Positions 22,906 through 35,178 of a stretch of DNA of 45,193 nt are shown here, one piece after another; within the stretch, counting starts at the first letter, position 1, and each line of letters begins with the position of its first letter. Source of the DNA: Candidatus Saccharimonadota bacterium (GTDB lineage Bacteria > Patescibacteriota > Saccharimonadia > CAILAD01 > BJGX01); the NCBI GenBank assembly GCA_037133995.1, contig JBAXNA010000002.1:1-45193 (forward strand), in the 5' to 3' direction. The notes under the pieces are model-generated. The model was not told the DNA's origin. It made no database searches and saw only the letters and a program-made list of their open reading frames with translations. The position numbers and the translations under genes were made by a program.

Positions 22906-24171
22906 TTATTGGGCGGCTTTTTGAGCAGCCAGTTCTAGAGCCTTTACTAGTTGAGGGTCGGTATTTGAATTGTAGTCTTGGGTAGTTAGCTTGACCTCTA
23001 CGTCAGGCTTAATACCTTCTTTAGAAATGTTTATGCCTTTTGGTGTATACCAGTGAGCCACGGTTACTTTTAAAGAGTCGGTTTTACAGTCGGCGCCAAT
23101 ATTAAGACTACTTAGGCAGATTATTTCTTGTACACTACCCTTACCATAGGTTTTCTCACCAACCAGTACGGCCCGGCCGTTGTCATGAAGGGCACCAGCC
23201 ATAATTTCACTGGCACTGGCTGAGCCTTCATTTACCAAGATAACAACAGGAACTTTGGTGAGGCTACCACCACTCTGTGCATTTATAACTTTATTTTTTT
23301 CATTTCGCGAGCGTTCTTCTACCACAACCCCACTACTCATAAATTCAGAGCTTATTTTGACAGAAGCATCTAAGTAGCCGCCGGGGTTGTCGCGCACATC
23401 AATTACCACGGCCTTGACGCCGGCGTTAGCAAACTCTTGGGCAGCCTTGCTTACGTCATTTGCAGTTTCGGCTCCAAAAGTACGTATTTTGATATAGCCA
23501 ATGTTTCCTGGCTTGATCTCTGTAGTTACACTAGGCACACTTATGTCGTCTCTTATTATTTTTATGTCTTGTGGGGCCGCACCGTCACGCATAATTGTCA
23601 GAGTAACTTCTGTACCTTTGTCGCCACGAATTTTTTTGACAGCTTCGTCTGTAGAGAGGCCACTAGTGTCTTGACCATCTATTGCCACAATCACGTCACC
23701 AGCCCTAATGCCGGCTTTACTGGCAGGAGTACCATCTATTGGGGCAATAACAGTCAATCTATCGTTTTTTGTGCCTATTTCAATACCCACGCCACTTAGC
23801 TTGCCAGTAAGCTGGTCTGAGAGCTCCTTGTTGTCTTTAGCTGTTAAGTAAGTAGTGTAGGGGTCACCAAGGCTGGCTACCATTCCCTCTGTAGCTCCTT
23901 GGCTTTGTTTTTCGCTGTTTATGTCTCCATCAAATTTTTTGTGTAAGATTTCATTTACTTGCCAGAATTTATCAAGATTTATACTGTTTTTTGACCTAGC
24001 TATAGAGTTTGGGCCAATTTGCAGACGTGGGCCGTAGGCATTAAATACAAAACCTATAGCAAAAAATACCACTGCAGTAGCAGCTATTTGCCATATTCTA
24101 ATATGGTTACTAGAATTCGTTGCGGGGGGAGCTTGTTGTGGCGTATTTTTTGGTTCTTGCTGATTATTCAT
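22906..24171 (-). CDS. ctpA: Carboxy-terminal processing (S41) protease with PDZ domain and N-terminal TM anchor
   Basis: PDZ-like segment GIRAGDVIVAIDG, the GSASASEI serine motif and TYGKGS. Confidence 0.85.
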   Translation of the reverse strand: MNNQQEPKNTPQQAPPATNSSNHIRIWQIAATAVVFFAIGFVFNAYGPRLQIGPNSIARSKNSINLDKFWQVNEILHKKFDGDINSEKQSQGATEGMVASLGDPYTTYLTAKDNKELSDQLTGKLSGVGIEIGTKNDRLTVIAPIDGTPASKAGIRAGDVIVAIDGQDTSGLSTDEAVKKIRGDKGTEVTLTIMRDGAAPQDIKIIRDDISVPSVTTEIKPGNIGYIKIRTFGAETANDVSKAAQEFANAGVKAVVIDVRDNPGGYLDASVKISSEFMSSGVVVEERSRNEKNKVINAQSGGSLTKVPVVILVNEGSASASEIMAGALHDNGRAVLVGEKTYGKGSVQEIICLSSLNIGADCKTDSLKVTVAHWYTPKGINISKEGIKPDVEVKLTTQDYNSNTDPQLVKALELAAQKAAQ

Positions 24172-24180
24172 AAGTGTTAA

Positions 24181-24553
24181 GCTATCTTAGCAGATGACCG
24201 TACAGTGTTACAAGACCATTATTGTGCAAGATCATTACCTTGTGGCCAAAACCGTAGCTGTCCCAGCCGTTAAATATTATCTGCCCAGCATCTGCTGCAC
24301 GTACTGGTGGGCTACTGGGGTTAGCGATATCTATGCCATTATGAAATGAGTAGCCACAGACTGTACAAGTAGCTGGCCCGTAGTTTTGAGTCATTATGCC
24401 GTTTGTTACCGAGCGATAGTCAAAAGGCGAACCATTTGGATTAATAAAACTACCTCCATTCAGCACAGAAAAATGCAGGTGAGTTCCGGTTGAGTTGCCG
24501 GTGCTGCCCATGTAGCCAATAATATCACCTTTGTTGACTGAGCCTAGGCTGAC
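24181..24553. repeat. Copy 1 of a 373-bp near-identical direct repeat (M23 module)
   Basis: Aligns base-for-base with 25172..25544 (offset 991) with about 4 mismatches by eye. Confidence 0.9.
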
Positions 24554-25162
24554 GAGACCACCAGAAGTATTCTGGGCGATCATGCTTGTAGCTAAGACGT
24601 TACTGCTCAGGCCAGAATCAACAGGGGGAACAACTAGCGGATTGTCTGGGTTGGTCTGGCCTGCTGAGTCTTGTGGCAAAGTCACTGTACTTTGATTGCT
24701 CAAATCTGTAGTATTAGCTGGCAGACTTGGGCCTGAATCTAATGTTTGCGGATAGTCTGAGGGTGTACTAGAGTATTCTTGCTGTGGCCCCACAGCAGCA
24801 GTCAGCTGGAGTGGTTGATTAGGTTGTTTTGGCAGCTGGGCGAGCTGCGATGCAGCTGTGTCTGTAGCTGGCTGGGGCTGTGGGTAAATTGGCGGCGTAG
24901 GCTTAGCAGTATTGGGGTCGTAGACTGGCTGAGTCTCTGAGTAAACAGTGCTTGCAGGTGTTTCTGCATAGGGCTGTGGTGCAGCTGTAGCTTGAGGCCG
25001 AGCTACAATATTCGGGTAAGCGTAGGATAAGGCAAGACATATCACAGAAAATACCACTGCGGTAGCGGCTACTTGCCTTATCCGGTTTCTAGAACTAGCG
25101 GGCGCTGGAGGTGTCTGCGCTTCGGGTGAGGATGATTTTTCGTGATCTTGTATAGGCTGCAT
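24182..25162 (-). CDS. Membrane-anchored M23 (LytM-type) peptidase with a Pro/Gln-rich linker; catalytic motifs in permuted order
   Basis: TM anchor (AATAVVFSVICLAL). HxH (THLHF) comes before HxxxD (HNGID), and the protein ends at LYGHLLR. Confidence 0.8.
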   Translation of the reverse strand: MQPIQDHEKSSSPEAQTPPAPASSRNRIRQVAATAVVFSVICLALSYAYPNIVARPQATAAPQPYAETPASTVYSETQPVYDPNTAKPTPPIYPQPQPATDTAASQLAQLPKQPNQPLQLTAAVGPQQEYSSTPSDYPQTLDSGPSLPANTTDLSNQSTVTLPQDSAGQTNPDNPLVVPPVDSGLSSNVLATSMIAQNTSGGLVSLGSVNKGDIIGYMGSTGNSTGTHLHFSVLNGGSFINPNGSPFDYRSVTNGIMTQNYGPATCTVCGYSFHNGIDIANPSSPPVRAADAGQIIFNGWDSYGFGHKVMILHNNGLVTLYGHLLR

Positions 25163-25171
25163 AACTTATAA

Positions 25172-25544
25172 GCTATCTTAGCAGATGACCATATAGTGTC
25201 ACAAGACCATTATTGTGCAAGATCATTACCTTGTGGCCAAAACCGTAGCTGTCCCAGCCGTTAAATATTATCTGCCCAGCATCTGCTGCACGTACTGGTG
25301 GGCTACTGGGGTTAGCGATATCTATGCCATTATGAAATGAGTAGCCACAGACTGTACAAGTAGCTGGCCCGTAGTTTTGAGTCATTATGCCGTTTGTTAC
25401 CGAGCGATAGTCAAAAGGCGAACCATTTGGATTAATAAAACTACCTCCATTCAGCACAGAAAAATGCAGGTGAGTTCCGGTTGAGTTGCCGGTGCTGCCC
25501 ATGTAGCCAATAATATCACCCTTGTTGACTGAGCCTAGGCTGAC
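25172..25544. repeat. Copy 2 of a 373-bp near-identical direct repeat (M23 module)
   Basis: See copy 1. Similarity ends abruptly at 25545. Confidence 0.9.
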
Positions 25545-26246
25545 TAAGTTTCCTGACCTAAAAGATTGAAGTGCAGCCGCTGCCTGAGCTGCCACCTGAG
25601 CCTCAGCTTGCTTTCGCTGACCAGAAAGATCAGATACAACTTTCTGGAATTGGGCCTCTTCGCCCTTAGTTTGAGCTAGTAAAGTAGCCTTCTGAGCACG
25701 TTGCCCAGCAATACTATCAACCTGGGCTTTTTGCTGCGCGCTCAGTGTAGTAAGTTCAGTCTTTTTGGCTTCAAGATCTACCTTGATTGCAGCAATCTTA
25801 ACAAGATTATCATCTATTTTTTTCTTGATGGCGGAGAGATACTGCTGCTGGGCCACAAAGTCACTTAAGTTTTTACTAGATGCCACTACCTCTATCGGGG
25901 TAGTTTCTCCCTGCTTATAGACTATCTTGAGATTGTCTTTTAGAATCAATTTTTGCTTTTCTAGCTCAGCATTCTGGGCGTTGATTTTTTCAGTCGTTTG
26001 ATTGAACTGAAGAGTGGTAAGATCTAGTGAGTCTTGGGCTGCATCTATACTACCATTTAGCTCATTTATTGCGCCCTGCAAGGTACTGGCTTCACCTTTT
26101 TTAGCATTAACTGCTTGCTGGTTTTGTTTAATCTGAGTATTGAGAGTATTTATTTTATCTTGTAGTGTTTGTGCAAAAACAGTGCTCGGCGCGAGTAGTA
26201 GTAGTAGAGCAGATATTGAAAGTAGTAATTTTTTAGTGTTTTTCAT
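25173..26246 (-). CDS. Secreted coiled-coil M23 (LytM-type) peptidase (EnvC-like architecture); catalytic motifs in permuted order
   Basis: Signal peptide (LLLLAPSTVFA), about 220 aa of coiled coil, and the same C-terminal 124 aa as the 24182..25162 protein. Confidence 0.8.
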   Translation of the reverse strand: MKNTKKLLLSISALLLLLAPSTVFAQTLQDKINTLNTQIKQNQQAVNAKKGEASTLQGAINELNGSIDAAQDSLDLTTLQFNQTTEKINAQNAELEKQKLILKDNLKIVYKQGETTPIEVVASSKNLSDFVAQQQYLSAIKKKIDDNLVKIAAIKVDLEAKKTELTTLSAQQKAQVDSIAGQRAQKATLLAQTKGEEAQFQKVVSDLSGQRKQAEAQVAAQAAAALQSFRSGNLVSLGSVNKGDIIGYMGSTGNSTGTHLHFSVLNGGSFINPNGSPFDYRSVTNGIMTQNYGPATCTVCGYSFHNGIDIANPSSPPVRAADAGQIIFNGWDSYGFGHKVMILHNNGLVTLYGHLLR

Positions 26247-26252
26247 AATATT

Positions 26253-27356
26253 TTAAAAGTGTAAAAACTGAAGCCCAGCTATATTTACGTCACTTGTTGA
26301 GTAAGATCCTTCCCAGTTAGCATTATATTGACTGACGTGTACTGTGCCATTGCCATTGACCTTCTCGACATACATGGCATGCCCGTATTCACCAGCTGTG
26401 CTAATAGCAATGTCGCCGGGTCTGGGGCTGTTGTCTACAGGTATATCGTAGGCCACAGCGTTGCCAGGCCACTGCTTGGCATTGCCTATACCGCCCCAGT
26501 AAGGCATGCGCCTGCCAGATGCCGCCACTCGCCAAGCAGTGTAGCTTACGCACTGACGCTGAAACATACCCCAGGGGTCGGCAATCAAATTAGGCCAAGG
26601 TGAAGTTGCCCAGGGGTAGCCGCCAGTGCCACCATAAACTACATTGGTGGAATAACCACCAATAATAGCGGCTTGTTGCATTCTAAGCTCATTAATTTTT
26701 GCTGTGTCTTCACCAGCTACTCTGCGATAGTTGGCTTCATCACCTTGAGTTCTTTGAAGTAAGCTCTGCTGTTGGGATCTCTGAGTGGCAATTTGTTCAT
26801 AGGTATTTTTTTGTTGGGTAGACAGCGCAGTAAGTTGTGACTTCTTTTCATCTAAGGCTTTTTTGATAAGTCTTATTTTTTCGAGATTATTATCAATCTT
26901 TTCTCTTATGGCCGAAAGATATTGTTGTTTAGCTACAAAATCACTGAGATTTACGCTAGATGCAATTATTTCAAGCGGGCTAACATAGCCTTCTTTATAA
27001 ATAAGCCTCAGATTGTCTTTTAGAATGCTTCGCTGGTGGTCAAGCTCTCTGTTGGTTGCATTTATATCAGATTGAGTTTCAGAAATTTTGGTATTTGTGA
27101 TGTCGAGTTGGGTTTGTGCAACATTGATTTGGGCCTCTATTGCCGAAAGAGCAGACTTTAGGCTGTCGGCTTCAGCAGTCTTGGCGTTAGCGGCATTTTG
27201 ACTATCGGCCACCTTCTTATTTAAAACTTTGATTTGATCGTCAAATTTGTCTGCCGAAACAACTTTTGGCAACAACAAAATAGCAACTACTCCGAGTGTT
27301 GCCAGTAGTTTTGTTTTTGTCATATTAAGATTTAAAGACTTGACTCTTGAAGACAT
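26253..27356 (-). CDS. Secreted coiled-coil CHAP-domain peptidoglycan hydrolase (PcsB-like architecture)
   Basis: Signal peptide, and a coiled coil homologous to that of the 25173..26246 protein. The C-terminal CHAP domain has Cys (QRQCVSYTAW) and His (GHAMYVEKV). Confidence 0.8.
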   Translation of the reverse strand: MSSRVKSLNLNMTKTKLLATLGVVAILLLPKVVSADKFDDQIKVLNKKVADSQNAANAKTAEADSLKSALSAIEAQINVAQTQLDITNTKISETQSDINATNRELDHQRSILKDNLRLIYKEGYVSPLEIIASSVNLSDFVAKQQYLSAIREKIDNNLEKIRLIKKALDEKKSQLTALSTQQKNTYEQIATQRSQQQSLLQRTQGDEANYRRVAGEDTAKINELRMQQAAIIGGYSTNVVYGGTGGYPWATSPWPNLIADPWGMFQRQCVSYTAWRVAASGRRMPYWGGIGNAKQWPGNAVAYDIPVDNSPRPGDIAISTAGEYGHAMYVEKVNGNGTVHVSQYNANWEGSYSTSDVNIAGLQFLHF

Positions 27357-27458: not shown

Positions 27459-28376
27459 CTATATTTTTAAGTATCTTATTAGAGCCAACCAGCTAGAAAT
27501 AATACCTATCAGTATTCCTATGGCAAACATACTGCCAGATACAGCCAAGAAGTGAGAAGCAAAATAGTCTAGGGTTGAGCCAGCACCAAGCTTGTCGGTT
27601 AGAAATGGGCTAACAGCCCGGGTAAATGGAATCAAAATAGCCAGTGAAAGTATAGCTCCAAAAATACCGTATAGAGTACCTTCCACCAAAAATGGGCCGC
27701 GAATAAACCACTTTGTAGCACCTACCAGCTTCATAATTTCTACTTCTTCTCGACGGGTAAAAATAGCCATTCTAATAGTATTAAAAATTATCATCAAAGC
27801 GACTATCAAGAATAAAATACTCAAAATAGCACCTATCCTGCTCACCGAATTACTTATAGATATGACATTCTCTACTACCCCTTGTCGATTGTCGTCTCTG
27901 TTGTCTAGGCTGGTATCGGTAATAATAGTGGCCTCCTCTAGGCTTTTAATATTCCCATTAGAGCTACTTATTTGATCGATATTTGTGAGTTTGACCTCAA
28001 AACTAGCCGGCAGCGGGTTGCCAATCTCTTGAGCAGACTTAGCTAGCTTTTCTCCCTCTGTACTTGAGTTCTTGAGTCTCTCAAGAGCGTCAGTTTTACT
28101 TACGTAGTTCACCGCTGAGACATTTTCAATACCGCCTATCTTGCTTTGCAAAGCTTGTATTTGGTCTTTAGTGGCGTCATCACTCAAAAATATACTCAAG
28201 TCAATCTTGCTTCTAACCTGAGTAAGCTGGGAGCGTACAAAAATACTCGAAAAAGCAAAAAATGTCATTATAAGAATTGTAACCACCATAATTGATGTAG
28301 CAGCTGTACTCAGCCAGGCGTTACGAAAGATATTTTTGAAACCAGCTCGCCAAATTCTTAGAAAAGTTGTCATCAT
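27459..28376 (-). CDS. ftsX: Cell-division ABC transporter permease-like protein FtsX
   Basis: TM1, an extracellular domain and three C-terminal TM helices. The start overlaps the ftsE stop by 4 bp. Confidence 0.88.
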   Translation of the reverse strand: MMTTFLRIWRAGFKNIFRNAWLSTAATSIMVVTILIMTFFAFSSIFVRSQLTQVRSKIDLSIFLSDDATKDQIQALQSKIGGIENVSAVNYVSKTDALERLKNSSTEGEKLAKSAQEIGNPLPASFEVKLTNIDQISSSNGNIKSLEEATIITDTSLDNRDDNRQGVVENVISISNSVSRIGAILSILFLIVALMIIFNTIRMAIFTRREEVEIMKLVGATKWFIRGPFLVEGTLYGIFGAILSLAILIPFTRAVSPFLTDKLGAGSTLDYFASHFLAVSGSMFAIGILIGIISSWLALIRYLKI

Positions 28377-29053
28377 AGTGAGTATTTCCCTACTTTTTCG
28401 TCTTTTACAATTCGGCCACGATTGATTGTTATTACGCGCTTCTTGAGAGCATCTACAATGTCTTTGTTGTGGGTGGTGAGAAGCACGGTGGTTCCAAATC
28501 GATTGATTTTGAGCAGTAGCTCAATGATGTCCCAGGAATTTTTGGGGTCGAGGTTGCCAGTAGGCTCATCTGCAATCAAAATCTTGGGATTGCGCACCAA
28601 GGCCCTGGCTATTGCGGTACGTTGCTTTTCACCACCAGAAAGTTCACCTGGGTAATTGTTCATTTTTTCACTCAAGCCCACGAGCTGAAGTATTTTTGGT
28701 ACAGCTCTTTTGATCTCTTTAGTTTTTACTCCAGAAACTTCTAGTGCAAAGGCCACATTTTCATAAACTGTAAGATTTGGCAAAAGCTTGAAGTCTTGAA
28801 AGACCACTCCAATACGTCTTCGCAAATGAGGGATATTGGCCTTGTCTATACTGTCATAGTCGATACTACCTACAATAATTTTGCCGCTAGTAGGCACCTC
28901 TTCTTTTATAAGTAGCCGTATAAGGGTACTTTTGCCGGCACCAGATGAGCCGACAATAGTTACAAATTCTTTGGGGTTGATGTGAAGCGAGACGCCAGAT
29001 AGTGCCACCGTTTTGTTGGGGTACATAACTGACACTCTATCGAGCAAAATCAT
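28373..29053 (-). CDS. ftsE: Cell-division ATP-binding protein FtsE
   Basis: Walker A GSSGAGKST, signature LSGGEKQR and Walker B LIADEPTGNLD, 226 aa. Confidence 0.92.
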   Translation of the reverse strand: MILLDRVSVMYPNKTVALSGVSLHINPKEFVTIVGSSGAGKSTLIRLLIKEEVPTSGKIIVGSIDYDSIDKANIPHLRRRIGVVFQDFKLLPNLTVYENVAFALEVSGVKTKEIKRAVPKILQLVGLSEKMNNYPGELSGGEKQRTAIARALVRNPKILIADEPTGNLDPKNSWDIIELLLKINRFGTTVLLTTHNKDIVDALKKRVITINRGRIVKDEKVGKYSL

Positions 29054-30348: not shown

Positions 30349-31602
30349 TTACTTCTTACCTACAGCATGCTTGGCATCACTAATAGATTTTTTGCTTTTT
30401 TGATAAGCATACACACTTGCACTAATTCCTGTCATACCTAGTATTCCAGCAAGACCAGATTCAATACCTGTTTGAGGTAGTGAGCTAGTTGGAGTTACAG
30501 GAGTGATAGGTGTTGGAGGAGTTGGACCTTTTGGGGTCACAATCTGAGCATCATCACAGCTTAGGTATGGTACTTCGGTAGAACGTACACAGCCTATGTT
30601 TGTAAGGGTGTCAACAGCAGTGTCTTTGACCGTTACTTGGTACAAGACGTAGCCATTTACTCCACCGGCGTAGTCACCTACGTTTTGGCCACCAGCTGAA
30701 AACAAGCTGTTGTCAGATAGAGCCATACCGTTAGGGTCGGTGCCGTTATATAGTTTTACAGTGCCAGGAATCAGTTTTAGCTGTTCTGGAAGCTTATCTG
30801 TAAGAGCCATATTGGTCTGGGTAGTTGTGCCTGTGTTTTTAAACGAAAGTCTAAAATACAGTCTTTCACCTGGCTTAGCTTCTAGTTTTTCAACAAAAGC
30901 TTGGCTTGGGCGGGCTACAGTCTTTTCAATAGTGATAGGGGCTGCTTCTACTTTGACCTTAACAATAACGTACATGTCGTTTTCAAAACATCCAGGTACG
31001 TTGCCGTCTTGTGCGTTTTCGCCAATATTGGCGCCAGCTCCAACAATACTGTCAGATACCGGTATCCCAACGCCAGTGTGAGTGTCAGCGTAAGCTGAAC
31101 CAGCTACATAGCTCAAACGATACGGAGTACCGTCTGCACTGGTGAAGTTGGTAGTGTCAAAGACACTACCAGGTTTGGCGTTGTCAGCCGAAATTTGGCT
31201 AACCGCGTTCATTTGTGTGCCAACTCCGTTAGGCAGAGTTATTTTAACTTTTGTGTTTTTGGCGATACCCACATAGTTGTGAGCGGCGTCATTTAGGGCT
31301 GAGTCAGCGTTATTGTGTATGTAAGTACGCAATTTAATTTCATCGCCAACTTTTACTTTGATAGGGTCTTGAAAACCACCTGGTGTGGTGTTCCACTGCT
31401 TACCATCAAAGAACTGTTGTTCGTTACCGTCTGGAACATTGGTAAACGAGTTGAAGGTTACATAGTCGAAGCCTGTTGTATTTGGGCCTGTCCAGGCTTT
31501 TAGCGGACGGTCAGGGTACCATCCAGCAACGGTCATAACAGGTACTAGCACTGCAATAGCAGTAGCCAAGACACCTAGACCAATTTTACTAATTAGTTTC
31601 AT
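30349..31602 (-). CDS. Sortase-anchored surface protein (LPQTG sorting signal, DUF11/CARDB-like repeat region)
   Basis: The C-terminus has LPQTG, a hydrophobic stretch (IESGLAGILGMTGISASVYAY) and a basic tail. An N-terminal signal or TM segment is present. The ATG at 31602 follows aaaaaggaga; the longer ORF reaching 31704 is rejected. Confidence 0.85.
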   Translation of the reverse strand: MKLISKIGLGVLATAIAVLVPVMTVAGWYPDRPLKAWTGPNTTGFDYVTFNSFTNVPDGNEQQFFDGKQWNTTPGGFQDPIKVKVGDEIKLRTYIHNNADSALNDAAHNYVGIAKNTKVKITLPNGVGTQMNAVSQISADNAKPGSVFDTTNFTSADGTPYRLSYVAGSAYADTHTGVGIPVSDSIVGAGANIGENAQDGNVPGCFENDMYVIVKVKVEAAPITIEKTVARPSQAFVEKLEAKPGERLYFRLSFKNTGTTTQTNMALTDKLPEQLKLIPGTVKLYNGTDPNGMALSDNSLFSAGGQNVGDYAGGVNGYVLYQVTVKDTAVDTLTNIGCVRSTEVPYLSCDDAQIVTPKGPTPPTPITPVTPTSSLPQTGIESGLAGILGMTGISASVYAYQKSKKSISDAKHAVGKK

Positions 31603-31994
31603 ATAAATATTCTCCTTTTTGAGATATTTTAGGTTTAATGTGATATTTAAAGTCAGAGATAAGTAGTATGTATTGGGGGGCCGCGAATACAGCTCGCAAG
31701 ACATGCTTTATTATCTAGACATTTGGGGTCTTTTGGAATTGTGCAAATATGATAATATCAAGGGGCATTTACAGTATTCGAACGAAACTCCGAATCAGCA
31801 CTTATAATAGCATATGATTATTCTTATGTCAATACTTTTGCATAACATTTATGTATCGAGAGATGGGTTCAAAAACAGGCAATATAGTAAGGATTATAGT
31901 ATATAGGCATATTTAGCTTTATAACTCTTATGTATATATGTCAAACAGCTCACTTTGTAGCTCTATACTTTTTATCTGGTGGCTCTTCTATTAA

Positions 31995-32041
31995 TAAAAA
32001 AAGACCCCCGTCTCTAGAGCTAAGTGCTCTAGAGACGGGGG
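31995..32041 (-). terminator. Intrinsic terminator after the 32048..33004 gene
   Basis: Perfect 16-bp stem (32005..32020 pairs with 32026..32041), a 5-nt loop, and a minus-strand U-run (31995..32004). Confidence 0.8.
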
Positions 32042-32047
32042 TAAATG

Positions 32048-33004
32048 TTAGCCAGGTGCCGTTTGCGGTACAGTCACTGGTATGGTCTGAACCGGTCTGG
32101 GCTCTGGCAAAGGTGCTGGCGGCGGTAGCGTCACAGGAGGTGGCGCAACAGTCGCGGTAGGCTCCACTTTATCAGGTGGCGGAGGCGTTGGGTTTACAGG
32201 CCTAGGCCCGCAATCTCCCAGCGCACAGGCTGCAGGGTCGTTGCCGATTGAACGACTCGGATCCTTGCAGTTATACCCTGGTGGGCAGCCTCCCGTTGTT
32301 GTGGGCGGTGCCTTTGGGGTAGTTACCACTGGCGGTGAGATTGGCCTTGGCTTGCTTGGTGTGCTTGGTGCTGGCTGGTCTAGCGTGGGAACCCCCACAA
32401 AACTAGTAGCAACCGGCTGAAATCCGCAGTCCAGCTTGTAATTAAGCTGAGTGCCAGCGCAGTCGAAGCGCAAAACACTGTAGCTGGGCTTTTCAGGGCT
32501 AGCCTGAAAAATACCAGGAATGTCAGAGGAGCTCGCGCCCTTCCGCATCCACAATGTTTGGTAATTACCAGACATTGTCTGCAGGCTTGCACTGCAGCTA
32601 CTCTCTCGAGTCTCAAGACTCATGACAGTGAGGCGCCAGGCCTCTTTATTGTCAATAAGTGTTTGGGTTTTAGCCAAACGCTCTTGAGGGCTGGTATAAA
32701 CACCAGCCTGGTACTCTTGGTGAGCCACGGCCAAGGCCGGGTCACTACAGCGGCGATTATGCAGCTCGCTTTTTTGAGCTTCAACATCAGCACTAGCTGA
32801 GGCCGGGCCAAAAAAGTTTGCAGCAACATCATAGGCAAAAAAGTGTACACTGTCAGCGCAATTGGCACTGGCATTCACTACCAGGGTCGTGCTTGGTGGC
32901 ACGGCTGTAATGGGGTTCGCCAGTAAGACGAACCCAAACAATAGTAGCACTACAGTTGAGGCAGCTGCCCCAACGAGCGCCCGCTTCTTATTTTCATTAA
33001 CCAT
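32048..33004 (-). CDS. GC-rich ORFan: signal-anchored secreted protein with a Cys-containing domain and a Pro-rich tail
   Basis: SD aaggggag, an N-terminal TM segment (VVLLLFGFVLLA), 10 Cys residues and a PPPP-rich C-terminus. GC content is visibly higher than the flanks. Confidence 0.7.
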   Translation of the reverse strand: MVNENKKRALVGAAASTVVLLLFGFVLLANPITAVPPSTTLVVNASANCADSVHFFAYDVAANFFGPASASADVEAQKSELHNRRCSDPALAVAHQEYQAGVYTSPQERLAKTQTLIDNKEAWRLTVMSLETRESSCSASLQTMSGNYQTLWMRKGASSSDIPGIFQASPEKPSYSVLRFDCAGTQLNYKLDCGFQPVATSFVGVPTLDQPAPSTPSKPRPISPPVVTTPKAPPTTTGGCPPGYNCKDPSRSIGNDPAACALGDCGPRPVNPTPPPPDKVEPTATVAPPPVTLPPPAPLPEPRPVQTIPVTVPQTAPG

Positions 33005-33104
33005 TAGGTGCTCCCCTTTCAGGGCCTCTGCCTTTCGAATTTATCTACCTTCTCACACAGGCTCATATGAGAAGATGTCAAAACTTGAATTGTAAATGTA
33101 TTGG

Positions 33105-33140
33105 TTTTGGTTGGGGAGATTAATCTCTCCCCAACCAAAA
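33105..33140. other. 15-bp stem-loop downstream of the 33159..33890 gene
   Basis: 33105..33119 pairs with 33126..33140 (ttttggttggggaga / tctccccaaccaaaa). There is no clear U-tract. Confidence 0.5.
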
Positions 33141-33158
33141 CAACTGGCTCCCGCGAGC

Positions 33159-33890
33159 TTACTGGCTCTGGCCAAATCTTTCGGCCCACCAGGCCTCAGA
33201 CGTGGTCTGGGGTGGCGGCGTAGGTGCACCAACAGAAGTTGGCACTAGCACCTGTGTGCGGGTTGGCTGTTGAGCAACAACCACAGCTGCAGGCTGCACA
33301 ACCTCTACCACTTGCACAACCTCAGTTGGCTCTTGAGCCGGTGCTGGGGCTGTAGTGGTGCTGGTAGGCCTACTAGCTGGCTTGCGCTTGCCAAGAAGAC
33401 AAACACAGGCCGCAAATGTAAATGCCATTGCAACAAAAGTATAGGCCACAACGTGGTAGTTCATAATGCTGCGAGCAGCACTAGAAATTACACCGTTGTT
33501 GCCACCTTCCACTGCTAAGAACGGATCCCAGCGGGCTGAGAACACCAGAATGTGAAAACAAACTGCTGAAATCAAACCTACAACAGCCGTGATGACTGTT
33601 GAGCCCAACCAGTCAATCTCGTGATTGAGGGCTTCGAGCCCCGTCACACGCTCATCAAGACCAGCCTGGTTGTCACCAAGCTGAGTGATTCGGCCTTGCT
33701 GGACAGCCAACTGTGTACCTTGAGCTGCTACAACTGTAGCAGTGTCGTCAACGTCGGTTCTGAGGCCGACAATACTTGAGTCGTGGTTAGCAAGCCTTGT
33801 GTCTACTACATCGTTCACTTCTGCTTGTGCAGCTAGCATCTCAGATAGCTGTCTCTTGGCCTTGTCTAGGTTGACTTGTGCTGAGGGCAT
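33159..33890 (-). CDS. GC-rich ORFan: N-terminal coiled coil, two TM helices and a Pro/Thr-rich tail
   Basis: SD aagggggg. TM segments VITAVVGLISAVCFHILVF and VVAYTFVAMAFTFAACVCLL. Confidence 0.7.
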   Translation of the reverse strand: MPSAQVNLDKAKRQLSEMLAAQAEVNDVVDTRLANHDSSIVGLRTDVDDTATVVAAQGTQLAVQQGRITQLGDNQAGLDERVTGLEALNHEIDWLGSTVITAVVGLISAVCFHILVFSARWDPFLAVEGGNNGVISSAARSIMNYHVVAYTFVAMAFTFAACVCLLGKRKPASRPTSTTTAPAPAQEPTEVVQVVEVVQPAAVVVAQQPTRTQVLVPTSVGAPTPPPQTTSEAWWAERFGQSQ

Positions 33891-34005
33891 TACGCCCCCC
33901 TTTCTGTGTTGTTTCGGATATTAGGTACTGGTCACTGGTGAAATAAGTCTTTTACGAATCTCACCAGAGTGCAAAACCTGTGGTTGAAATATGGGTTTAA
34001 ATTGT

Positions 34006-34042
34006 GTCACCAGAGAGTCTCGCAATGAGACCCTCTGGTGAC
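34006..34042. terminator. 16-bp stem-loop (one mismatch) just after the 34060..35178 gene
   Basis: gtcaccagagagtctc-gcaat-gagaccctctggtgac. Confidence 0.5.
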
Positions 34043-34059
34043 ATAGAACTACAAAAAGG

Positions 34060-35178
34060 CTAGGCCAGGCTTTCTATCCGCATAATAACAGATCGGGCCC
34101 GATCAAGAAACTTCTGGGTGAATTCGTCAAAATCTACTGTGCCTTCTGGCTCGGTATCATTCGGTGGAATTTCCTCTGGAGTATCTTTGAGCTGTGGTGC
34201 CTCTGGAGCCTCAGGCTCCTCGGCCTTAGGGCCGCAGACAATGTACGGCACTGGAGGCTGTTCATCTTTGGCTTCCACTTTGGTTTCAGCTTTGGCGCTA
34301 GCCTCAACTTCAACTTCAGTTTCTTGCTGTGAATTAGACTCAGTCTCAGCCTCTTTCTTGATGCGTGCAATGGCTTCGGCAATATCAGCCTCAGACTTGG
34401 CTTCTGCTTCAGCCTTGGCTTTAGCATTTTCCATTCGCCTGATTCTATCAATTTGATCGGCCATGTTGGGCACATCTTGATGCTCAGCATCAGCTACTGG
34501 AGCTTCTGCTACAGACTGCTGCTTCTGCTTAGCCTTAGCTTCAGCGTCTGCCTTAGCATTGGCTTTAGCCTTGGCTTCAGCATCTGTCTTGGCTTTCGCT
34601 TCAGCATTAGCCTTGACGATAGCATCAAATTCACAGGCCTCTTGAAAAAGTCGCTCGGCCTCAAACGCGTCTAGCAACTTTAGCCCATTGGCTTGGTTAT
34701 TAAACATCTTGAACTTGATGCCAAACAGCGAAAGTAAGTCCTTCACCTTGATGCCCAAGCGGGCTGCAATGGTAGAGGCTGGCTCAACAACTGAAGTGTT
34801 GCTGTCGTCAGCTTCTTGCTCTGCCCAAACATCATTGCTTGGTGGTGCCGGCTCGCCCTCAAAAAACTCTTCATTGAGCAGGGTCTTTGTGCCAGGCTCT
34901 GCCTTGTCATCTTCGGCTTTCGCTTCAGCTTTTGCAGCCTTTGCAGAAACTCCAAGGACTTTCCTGACCCTAGTCATAGAGACAAGATCGCTGCCCTTCT
35001 TGGCCTTACCATCTGCCTTAAGCACCTGCTTGAGAGTTACCTCAAGCTCTTTTGCTGCTTCAGATGCAGTTGAACGCTTCCGATTTTTTCGGGCGGGTTT
35101 CTCTGGTACATCAGTGCTTGAGAAATCAATCTCAAGCTCACCAATATCTTTCAATGACTTAACAACTTTTGCGGCCAT
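34060..35178 (-). CDS. Highly charged ORFan with (A/E)AKAK repeats (TolA-like helical low complexity)
   Basis: Strong SD aaggagg before the ATG at 35178. Shadow ORFs occur in several other frames because of the low-complexity sequence. Confidence 0.65.
   Translation of the reverse strand: MAAKVVKSLKDIGELEIDFSSTDVPEKPARKNRKRSTASEAAKELEVTLKQVLKADGKAKKGSDLVSMTRVRKVLGVSAKAAKAEAKAEDDKAEPGTKTLLNEEFFEGEPAPPSNDVWAEQEADDSNTSVVEPASTIAARLGIKVKDLLSLFGIKFKMFNNQANGLKLLDAFEAERLFQEACEFDAIVKANAEAKAKTDAEAKAKANAKADAEAKAKQKQQSVAEAPVADAEHQDVPNMADQIDRIRRMENAKAKAEAEAKSEADIAEAIARIKKEAETESNSQQETEVEVEASAKAETKVEAKDEQPPVPYIVCGPKAEEPEAPEAPQLKDTPEEIPPNDTEPEGTVDFDEFTQKFLDRARSVIMRIESLA

Follow-up and report, generated by a model that had tools for sequence, protein, structure and literature searches.

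Predicted circular permutation of the M23/LytM peptidase domain in a protein family of the candidate phyla radiation encoded beside ftsEX

Can a peptidase domain that carries the catalytic motifs of its family in the wrong order still be a working enzyme, and how would such an arrangement have come about? This question is raised by two adjacent genes in a stretch of 45,193 nucleotides (nt) from a Candidatus Saccharimonadota bacterium (assembly GCA_037133995.1, contig JBAXNA010000002.1, positions 1 to 45,193; the window in the following). Gene 2 (25173..26246, minus strand) is a complete open reading frame (ORF) of 357 amino acids (aa) with a predicted Sec signal peptide, a coiled coil and an M23-related domain. 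Gene 1 (24182..25162, minus strand), a complete ORF of 326 aa, comprises a membrane anchor, a linker rich in proline and glutamine (P/Q-rich) and a copy of the same domain. M23/LytM peptidases are a much-studied group defined by the order HxxxD...HxH. Their motifs are H(x)nD, HxH and a further His about 30 residues before HxH, and the InterPro/Pfam definition of the domain runs 'from Hx3D up to HxH' (PMC9662197).

Both genes terminate in the same module of about 125 aa, in which the GSTG..HLHF half precedes the HxxxD..YxH half. In gene 2, the 'C-half' of the M23 domain is placed first (aa 238-274, 25425..25535, minus strand; GSTGNSTGTHLHF) and carries H259 and H261. The 'N-half' is placed second (aa 283-355, 25182..25400, minus strand) with the motifs FHNGID (H305/D309) and LYGH (H354), and the stop lies three codons on, that is, the chain ends three residues past the catalytic H354. 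The catalytic and ligand set of M23 peptidases is complete in both proteins (H259, H261, H305, D309 and H354 in gene 2; H228, H230, H274, D278 and H323 in gene 1). Instead of the collinear order H(x)nD...His...HxH, we found HxH...HxxxD...His with swapped profile coordinates. Pfam profile PF01551 recognized both proteins with 81.5 bits (cut-off 28.7), but as two stretches: module residues 77-128 aligned to profile positions 2-52, and the first 49 residues alone to positions 62-96. When the PDB was searched with phmmer, aa 302-355 of gene 2 matched residues 243-295 of chain 3slu_A (HxxxD..YxHL), while aa 237-274 matched residues 302-339 (GSTG..HLH). A hidden Markov model (HMM) built from 131 collinear M23 domains, the canonical HMM, placed aa 238-274 of gene 2 at positions 90-126 and aa 283-355 at positions 8-81; its match to gene 1 was also swapped (aa 207-243 at 90-126, aa 252-324 at 8-81). 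As a control, we used a synthetic un-permuted sequence with the N-half joined ahead of the C-half. This gave a single collinear match to the Pfam profile (2-96 of 96 positions, 90.5 bits) and to our own HMM (8-126, 130 bits). No collinear model for the module was found in Pfam or NCBIfam. At the level of sequence comparison, the two halves of an M23/LytM domain are truly circularly permuted in this module, which we call pM23.

The chain break would lie in the loop that comes right behind the Y-x-H strand's catalytic His. The former C-terminus (..NP..YL) would have been fused to the former N-terminus (WP..G.[IV]TQ.YG) via a short conserved linker, resulting in the order [V..G..IG..GSTG.STG.HLHF] - linker - [H.G.D ... 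Y.H] - stop. In gene 2, H305, D309 and H261 are the predicted zinc ligands and H259 and H354 the putative catalytic His residues, all of which are kept.

In a second approach, the structure of the module was predicted with AlphaFold2 (AF2), using gene 2 aa 220-357 and an alignment of 31 sequences that contained permuted members only. The model is one compact domain with a mean predicted local distance difference test score (pLDDT) of 88.8 and a predicted template modelling score (pTM) of 0.84, and its strands match the usual M23 strands. Foldseek comparison with the PDB returned lysostaphin catalytic domains as the sole matches with a probability of at least 0.9 (0.90-0.99). These were aligned over 63-81 of 138 columns with a root-mean-square deviation (rmsd) of 2.3-2.7 Å, a length in keeping with the method, since only some half of a permutant should be within reach of an aligner that works sequentially. 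Collinear matches of the module to PDB chains were absent both by sequence (phmmer) and by fold (Foldseek), and a solved structure with this topology was thus not found. pM23 most likely folds into an ordinary M23 beta-core and would cleave the peptide cross-links of peptidoglycan. With canonical M23B peptidases (LytM, lysostaphin, PF01551) it shares the HxxxD motif, the third His in YxH, the GxTGxSTGxHLHF motif and a significant PF01551 match, and zinc-dependent peptidoglycan endopeptidase chemistry would be expected for pM23 too. It differs from them in its reversed halves and in ending 1-3 residues past the catalytic His, and only half-domains of it are detected by collinear HMMs and by structure aligners of the sequential kind.

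How widespread is this arrangement? Nearly all matches from a word-indexed search with the module were canonical M23 proteins aligned over half of the query; one protein from that search, P0016, was 40% identical, shared this order of halves and had its C-terminus at the corresponding point. An exhaustive HMMER search was run with a two-sequence profile against 1.84 billion representatives. Among the best 150 matches (50%-identity clusters), about 45 were permuted, with single-stretch, full-length alignments reaching the last residues of proteins of 340-420 aa, and a full-length profile matched 668 90%-identity clusters at E ≤ 1e-30. With the canonical HMM, 57 of 57 sequences of a first set (the two window proteins and 55 family members) were swapped, as were all 115 full-length homologues of a second set. 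The N-half ended at HMM position 81-84 in every member of both sets, and the proteins of the second set ended 0-3 residues past the aligned N-half. HxGxD was retained in 110, HxH in 112 and the C-terminal YxH in 114 of these 115 homologues, and the M23 motifs were invariant or nearly so in alignments of 30 and 116 sequences. The same order and break point thus recur in more than 170 homologues, down to about 25% identity, and the linker between the halves is short, with the conserved motif NPxxYLxxGxxxWP.

Named sources of these proteins are Saccharibacteria, Daviesbacteria, Woesebacteria and candidate division WWE3, besides one contig labelled Nanoarchaeia, and their database names are generic ('peptidoglycan DD-metalloendopeptidase family protein', 'Peptidase M23', 'CwlO-like', 'EnvC'). 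When un-permuted units were compared with canonical and tandem units in a neighbour-joining tree, 110 of the 111 non-redundant permuted units fell into one pure clade; crude as it is, this tree suggests a single origin of the permutation. Judged by its homologues, pM23 is an old, conserved family of the Patescibacteria or candidate phyla radiation (CPR) that extends beyond the source genome, and the permutation is older than the split of several CPR lineages.

Two subfamilies can be told apart by their C-terminal motif, ...LYWHIP and ...LYGHM. In the 'LYWHIP' subfamily (e.g. P0052, P0137, P0143), a Cys in GCSTGxHLH of the C-half and a Cys in a loop of the N-half co-occur (113/113 versus 0/79), which suggests a disulfide bridging the two halves and fits halves that are in contact. 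The window proteins instead carry a CxxC just ahead of HxxxD. Stand-alone pM23 forms of 130-154 aa with no coiled coil were found as well. One of these short forms, P0203 (L085/L086), comes from a contig deposited as 'Candidatus Nanoarchaeia archaeon', where its neighbours are genes of the S12/S7/EF-G ribosomal cluster and toxin-antitoxin pairs; the label may be a binning error, or pM23 may reach beyond the CPR. A profile search of genome contigs with a five-sequence alignment was dominated by canonical M23, and none of its 80 loci was permuted. On a Saccharibacteria-labelled contig (L021, 5173-6435), we observed a canonical, collinear protein of coiled coil and M23 that does not adjoin ftsEX, so that canonical and permuted coiled-coil M23 proteins are both present in the CPR.

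Tandem M23 proteins are plausible duplication intermediates on the way to the permutant. They contain two or three collinear domains (P0059-P0201, e.g. P0070, P0075 and P0099; 46 'FF' architectures in the set retrieved) and have the same junction from C-half to N-half as pM23 at similar spacing, with 47-68 residues from HxH to the next HxxxD versus 43-86 in permutants. However, each domain of a tandem protein is complete and collinear, and the neighbour-joining tree did not show tandem proteins to be nearest to pM23.

These results bear out most of an earlier note on this DNA. It had described two adjacent ORFs with M23/LytM motifs in reversed order, and both ORFs and the order are as described. 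It had also stated that all zinc ligands and catalytic His residues are retained, which agrees with the five residues identified in each gene. Its proposal of a permutant rather than a degenerate LytM domain is favoured by the kept residues, the order conserved in a large clade and the single domain predicted by AF2. The swapped partial PF01551 matches that it had expected of a permutant were also obtained, with no collinear full-length match for the native proteins.

What, then, would a permuted M23 domain do in gene 2? The AF2 model of the full-length protein (pLDDT 84.7) comprises a signal-peptide helix, helices 28-112 and 127-230 arranged as a hairpin, and the beta domain. The coiled-coil hairpin (aa 28-230, 25557..26165, minus strand) was recognized by the AF2 helices, by Foldseek and by a weak match to Pfam CC_PcsB. 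By sequence, the N-terminal region of EnvC in NCBIfam (PRK11637) matched aa 28-213 of gene 2 at E 4.5e-7, and EnvC chains of the PDB matched at E 3.7e-10 and 6e-9, with 8hd0_E aligned over aa 15-354. By fold, the top Foldseek ranks were taken by EnvC from the FtsEX-EnvC complex (8tzl_E, probability 0.99) and by 6tpi_A; the N-terminal domain of RipA (6ewy) matched the hairpin with a TM-score of 0.86 (normalised to the target) and an rmsd of 3.1 Å over 201 columns.

The neighbourhood of gene 2 points in the same direction. In the window, ftsE, ftsX, a gene for a coiled-coil CHAP protein (CC-CHAP), gene 2, gene 1, ctpA and pyrG form a tight co-directional row, with prfB upstream of ftsE in divergent orientation. 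Exact-match clusters of FtsE and PyrG bear the names 'Candidatus Saccharibacteria' and 'Patescibacteria group', which fits a saccharibacterial source of the window. The genes of this row include ftsE (28373..29053, minus strand; Pfam ABC_tran, 1e-37; cluster members named FtsE of Ca. Saccharibacteria) and ftsX (27459..28376, minus strand; Pfam FtsX_ECD, 4.9e-20, and FtsX, 1.2e-15). CC-CHAP (26253..27356, minus strand) encodes a coiled coil and a CHAP hydrolase, a PcsB-like paralogue (Pfam CHAP, 2.5e-16; weak CC_PcsB; partial matches to PcsB/ScrM in NCBIfam); downstream of ftsEX, the source genome thus encodes two hydrolases with a coiled coil. Directly downstream of gene 1 lies a ctpA-like gene for an S41 C-terminal processing protease (22906..24171, minus strand; Pfam Peptidase_S41, 1.1e-51, PDZ and CtpB_N-like). 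We regard ftsE-ftsX-(CC-CHAP)-gene 2-gene 1-ctpA as an apparent operon. Genes for coiled-coil pM23 proteins (CC-pM23) have ftsE-ftsX directly upstream in the window and in five further loci, namely in two Saccharibacteria relatives (L092, L093) and in distant members of both subfamilies (L087, L089, L091). The synteny of ftsEX, CC-pM23, ctpA and pyrG is preserved in L092 and L093. Of these two loci, only L092 has the CC-CHAP gene between ftsX and CC-pM23.

Because of this synteny and homology, we read gene 2 as a hydrolase held by FtsEX, most likely a septal endopeptidase coupled to it. EnvC, PcsB, CwlO and RipC are established FtsEX partners (PMC11627006). By analogy with these proteins, the coiled coil of gene 2 would dock on the extracellular domain of FtsX, and the ATPase cycle would control the hydrolase at the septum. 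In outline, gene 2 resembles EnvC of E. coli and V. cholerae, which likewise has a signal peptide, a coiled coil folded into a long antiparallel hairpin, a LytM-type domain at the C-terminus and an ftsEX neighbour. However, the LytM domain in EnvC has the collinear order, is catalytically inactive and activates amidases, whereas pM23 is permuted and has kept all catalytic residues. Since every catalytic residue is kept, unlike in EnvC, we favour a direct endopeptidase over an activator. Gene 2 shares with PcsB (S. pneumoniae), CwlO (B. subtilis) and RipC/RipA (mycobacteria) the logic of a coiled-coil adaptor and an active hydrolase under FtsEX, but catalysis in those proteins falls to a cysteine peptidase domain of the CHAP or NlpC/P60 type, compared with M23 in gene 2. 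With the domain permuted, the coiled coil would enter it at a different strand than in EnvC, beside the active-site His: the last coiled-coil helix is predicted to lead almost straight into the strand that flanks the catalytic His, with the free C-terminus at the cleft. That a break point next to the active site alters regulation is offered here as a hypothesis only.

Could pM23 be permuted and yet catalytically silent, a 'LytM factor' of the EnvC/NlpD kind that activates an amidase or the adjacent CHAP protein? The architecture and ftsEX synteny of gene 2 copy those of EnvC, and some family members are annotated 'septal ring factor EnvC' by the Joint Genome Institute (JGI). However, metal ligands are lost in EnvC-type factors, whereas at least 96% of the 115 homologues retain HxxxD, HxH and the third His. 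Such retention across about 25-90% identity argues for selection on catalysis, and we consider a silent regulator improbable. Alternatively, the C-half of one chain might complete the N-half of another in a segment-swapped dimer. The coiled-coil region could drive the necessary oligomerisation, and tandem M23 proteins with a similarly short spacing between the C-half of the first and the N-half of the second domain do exist. Yet the AF2 module is confident and compact as a monomer, the linker between the halves is short and has a conserved motif, and the stand-alone forms do without a coiled coil, which makes the swapped dimer very unlikely. The arrangement might also be an artefact, be it a mis-assembly at a repeat, the frameshifted remnant of a tandem M23 protein or a pseudogene. 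The locus does contain a near-perfect repeat of about 375 nt, a classic assembly hazard, and an independent contig of 2352 nt ends inside gene 1, presumably where the assembly broke at the repeat. However, the same independent ENA contig carries an identical gene 2, members of the gene 1 cluster lie on several contigs, the flanks of the two copies differ, and the more than 170 homologues, although drawn from numerous samples and assemblers, agree in the order of the halves and terminate 0-3 residues past a common position. An assembly artefact or pseudogene was therefore rejected on the independent contigs and the conserved termination, and we put its likelihood close to nil.

Some observations weigh against reading pM23 as an old family of FtsEX-controlled peptidases. 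The Foldseek E-value of the module to the PDB is weak (0.19). The neighbour-joining tree rests on 136 columns and on a biased sample of canonical sequences, and the Cys covariation is confined to one subfamily, phylogenetically a single event. One full-length member, P0096 (L090), does not adjoin ftsEX, and the short stand-alone forms P0206 and P0203 are located away from ftsEX in their genomes. Moreover, the activity, zinc binding and FtsX binding of pM23 are predictions from sequence. With these points taken into account, we judge it quite probable that the explanation holds as a whole, that is, that the module is an M23 permutant of an old CPR family, that gene 2 is an FtsEX-controlled hydrolase and that gene 1 is a recent chimera.

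The recent origin of gene 1 follows from its composition. Its N-terminus with the hydrophobic anchor (25013..25162, minus strand) and that of ctpA, the next gene downstream, are homologous (DNA repeat D2, 82% identity). The P/Q-rich linker (24560..25012, minus strand) is probably disordered, judging by the composition of the translation, and the copy of the permuted module (24185..24556, minus strand; repeat D1) is near-identical to that of gene 2, with 4 nt differences over about 375 nt. Flanks of the module are about 65-80% identical or unrelated. Two repeat pairs were detected in the window (24146-24560 versus 25137-25551 and 24048-24171 versus 25033-25162), and local alignment of the N-termini of the gene 1 and ctpA proteins scored 73 versus a shuffle mean of 22.5 ± 4.2. 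The anchor and ctpA are only about 70-82% identical, as opposed to about 99% DNA identity between the modules, which suggests gene conversion or very uneven divergence. In a relative with 86% identity, the order is ftsEX, CC-CHAP, CC-pM23 and ctpA without gene 1, and a relative with 54% identity lacks both gene 1 and CC-CHAP (these relatives are contigs L092 and L093). The 90%-identity cluster of gene 1 has six members on several contigs; the gene is conserved almost unchanged in at least six sequences that stem from more than one assembly. A derivation of the linker from a degenerate or frame-shifted coiled coil of gene 2 was rejected, as the similarity was at shuffle level in every frame.

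Because gene 1 is absent from the 86%- and 54%-identical relatives, has a ctpA-homologous N-terminus and carries near-identical module DNA, it is a young chimera, specific to this lineage, in which a ctpA-like anchor and a P/Q-rich tether are followed by another copy of pM23. It would have been born by duplication of a segment that held the pM23 module and the start of ctpA, and the modules of the two genes would since have been homogenised, probably by gene conversion, or were only recently copied. Its product is probably a membrane-tethered endopeptidase that would act independently of FtsEX. The earlier note had taken the tandem copies at the locus as a hint to the route by which the permutation arose. 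This did not hold: the copies were made recently and from an already-permuted module and are thus unrelated to the origin of the permutation. With gene 1 missing from both relatives and built as a chimera with a ctpA anchor, local tandem duplication was rejected as the source.

Elsewhere in the window, four successive ORFs (451, 318, 243 and 372 aa) on the minus strand at 30349-35178 remained without a match to Pfam at E ≤ 1e-4. From 32 to 34 kb, within the region of these ORFs, the G+C content is raised (0.526 versus about 0.43).

A similar half-order was seen in phage virion proteins. Foldseek comparison with BFVD aligned the module model almost end to end (134-163 columns) with three phage virion proteins of about 1000 aa, H6WFX6 of cyanophage S-TIM5, a protein of Synechococcus phage P60 and A0A510E7V3_3. 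The end of P60 gp33 (L096, 22777-25779) reads ...GYGSTGPHLD...SFGVDFA...YAFVHGTVPNA*, with the half-order and end point of pM23. When the pM23 profile was compared with the C-terminus of P60 gp33 in hhalign, only the GSTGPHL motif was aligned (probability 14%), and HMMER was also weak; the cyanophage likeness is thus a matter of Foldseek and of motifs judged by eye. In the tape measure protein of Acinetobacter phage YMC11/11/R3177 (L095, NC_041866.1), aa 680-798 have the permuted order GQSGIGTGPHLD ... SFHKGIDFS ... LKLLHQ. To this segment, the permuted-family HMM was collinear (38.7 bits) and the canonical HMM swapped, and it has H-L-D instead of H-x-H. A permuted M23-like tape-measure segment also occurs in 25 other Acinetobacter phage records. 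A single-piece tblastn match in Clostridium phage phiCp-B was rejected, as it is a canonical M23 domain. A permuted M23-like domain of the H-L-D type may therefore also exist in phage virion-associated lysins. We put forward tentatively, and as rather unlikely, a wider proposal: that the permutation is functional and not neutral, with both chain ends at the edge of the cleft letting CPR bacteria gate an active M23 domain in a manner unlike the restraining arm of EnvC, and that together with the H-L-D phage lysins pM23 would form a broad, overlooked M23 branch common to CPR and phages.

Circular permutation as such has precedents. Permuted NlpC/P60 families (YaeF/poxvirus G6R, LRAT-like; Anantharaman & Aravind 2003, per PMC6403190) are natural permutants with swapped catalytic residues in a cell-wall peptidase superfamily, although their fold and catalytic type differ from those of pM23. 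Permutation has also been noted among hybrid-barrel (HABAS) domains, to which M23 belongs (PMC11515920), and a permutation of M23 is therefore structurally plausible. For M23 itself, the term 'permut' is absent from the text of an M23 review (PMC9662197), and a review of cell-wall hydrolases (PMC6403190) covers permuted NlpC/P60 only and no permuted M23. In the literature and domain libraries searched, we found no description of a permuted M23, LytM or lysostaphin domain, in line with the earlier note, whose author knew of none. The proteins were already public under generic names; what is new is the recognition that these proteins have the pM23 topology, that it is conserved and that in the CPR it is linked to ftsEX.

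As a natural permutant, pM23 would show that the M23 fold tolerates a break beside its active site. Profile-based annotation splits or truncates pM23, and surveys that build on the InterPro definition therefore miss it. The permuted fold may also serve as a template for engineered permuted enzybiotics of the lysostaphin type. Chain topology would here rewire the regulatory coiled coil relative to the catalytic domain. Saccharibacteria, Microgenomates and WWE3 have minimal genomes and are largely uncultured, and their division machinery is poorly known. For these organisms, pM23 points to a likely septal hydrolase that is coupled to FtsEX.

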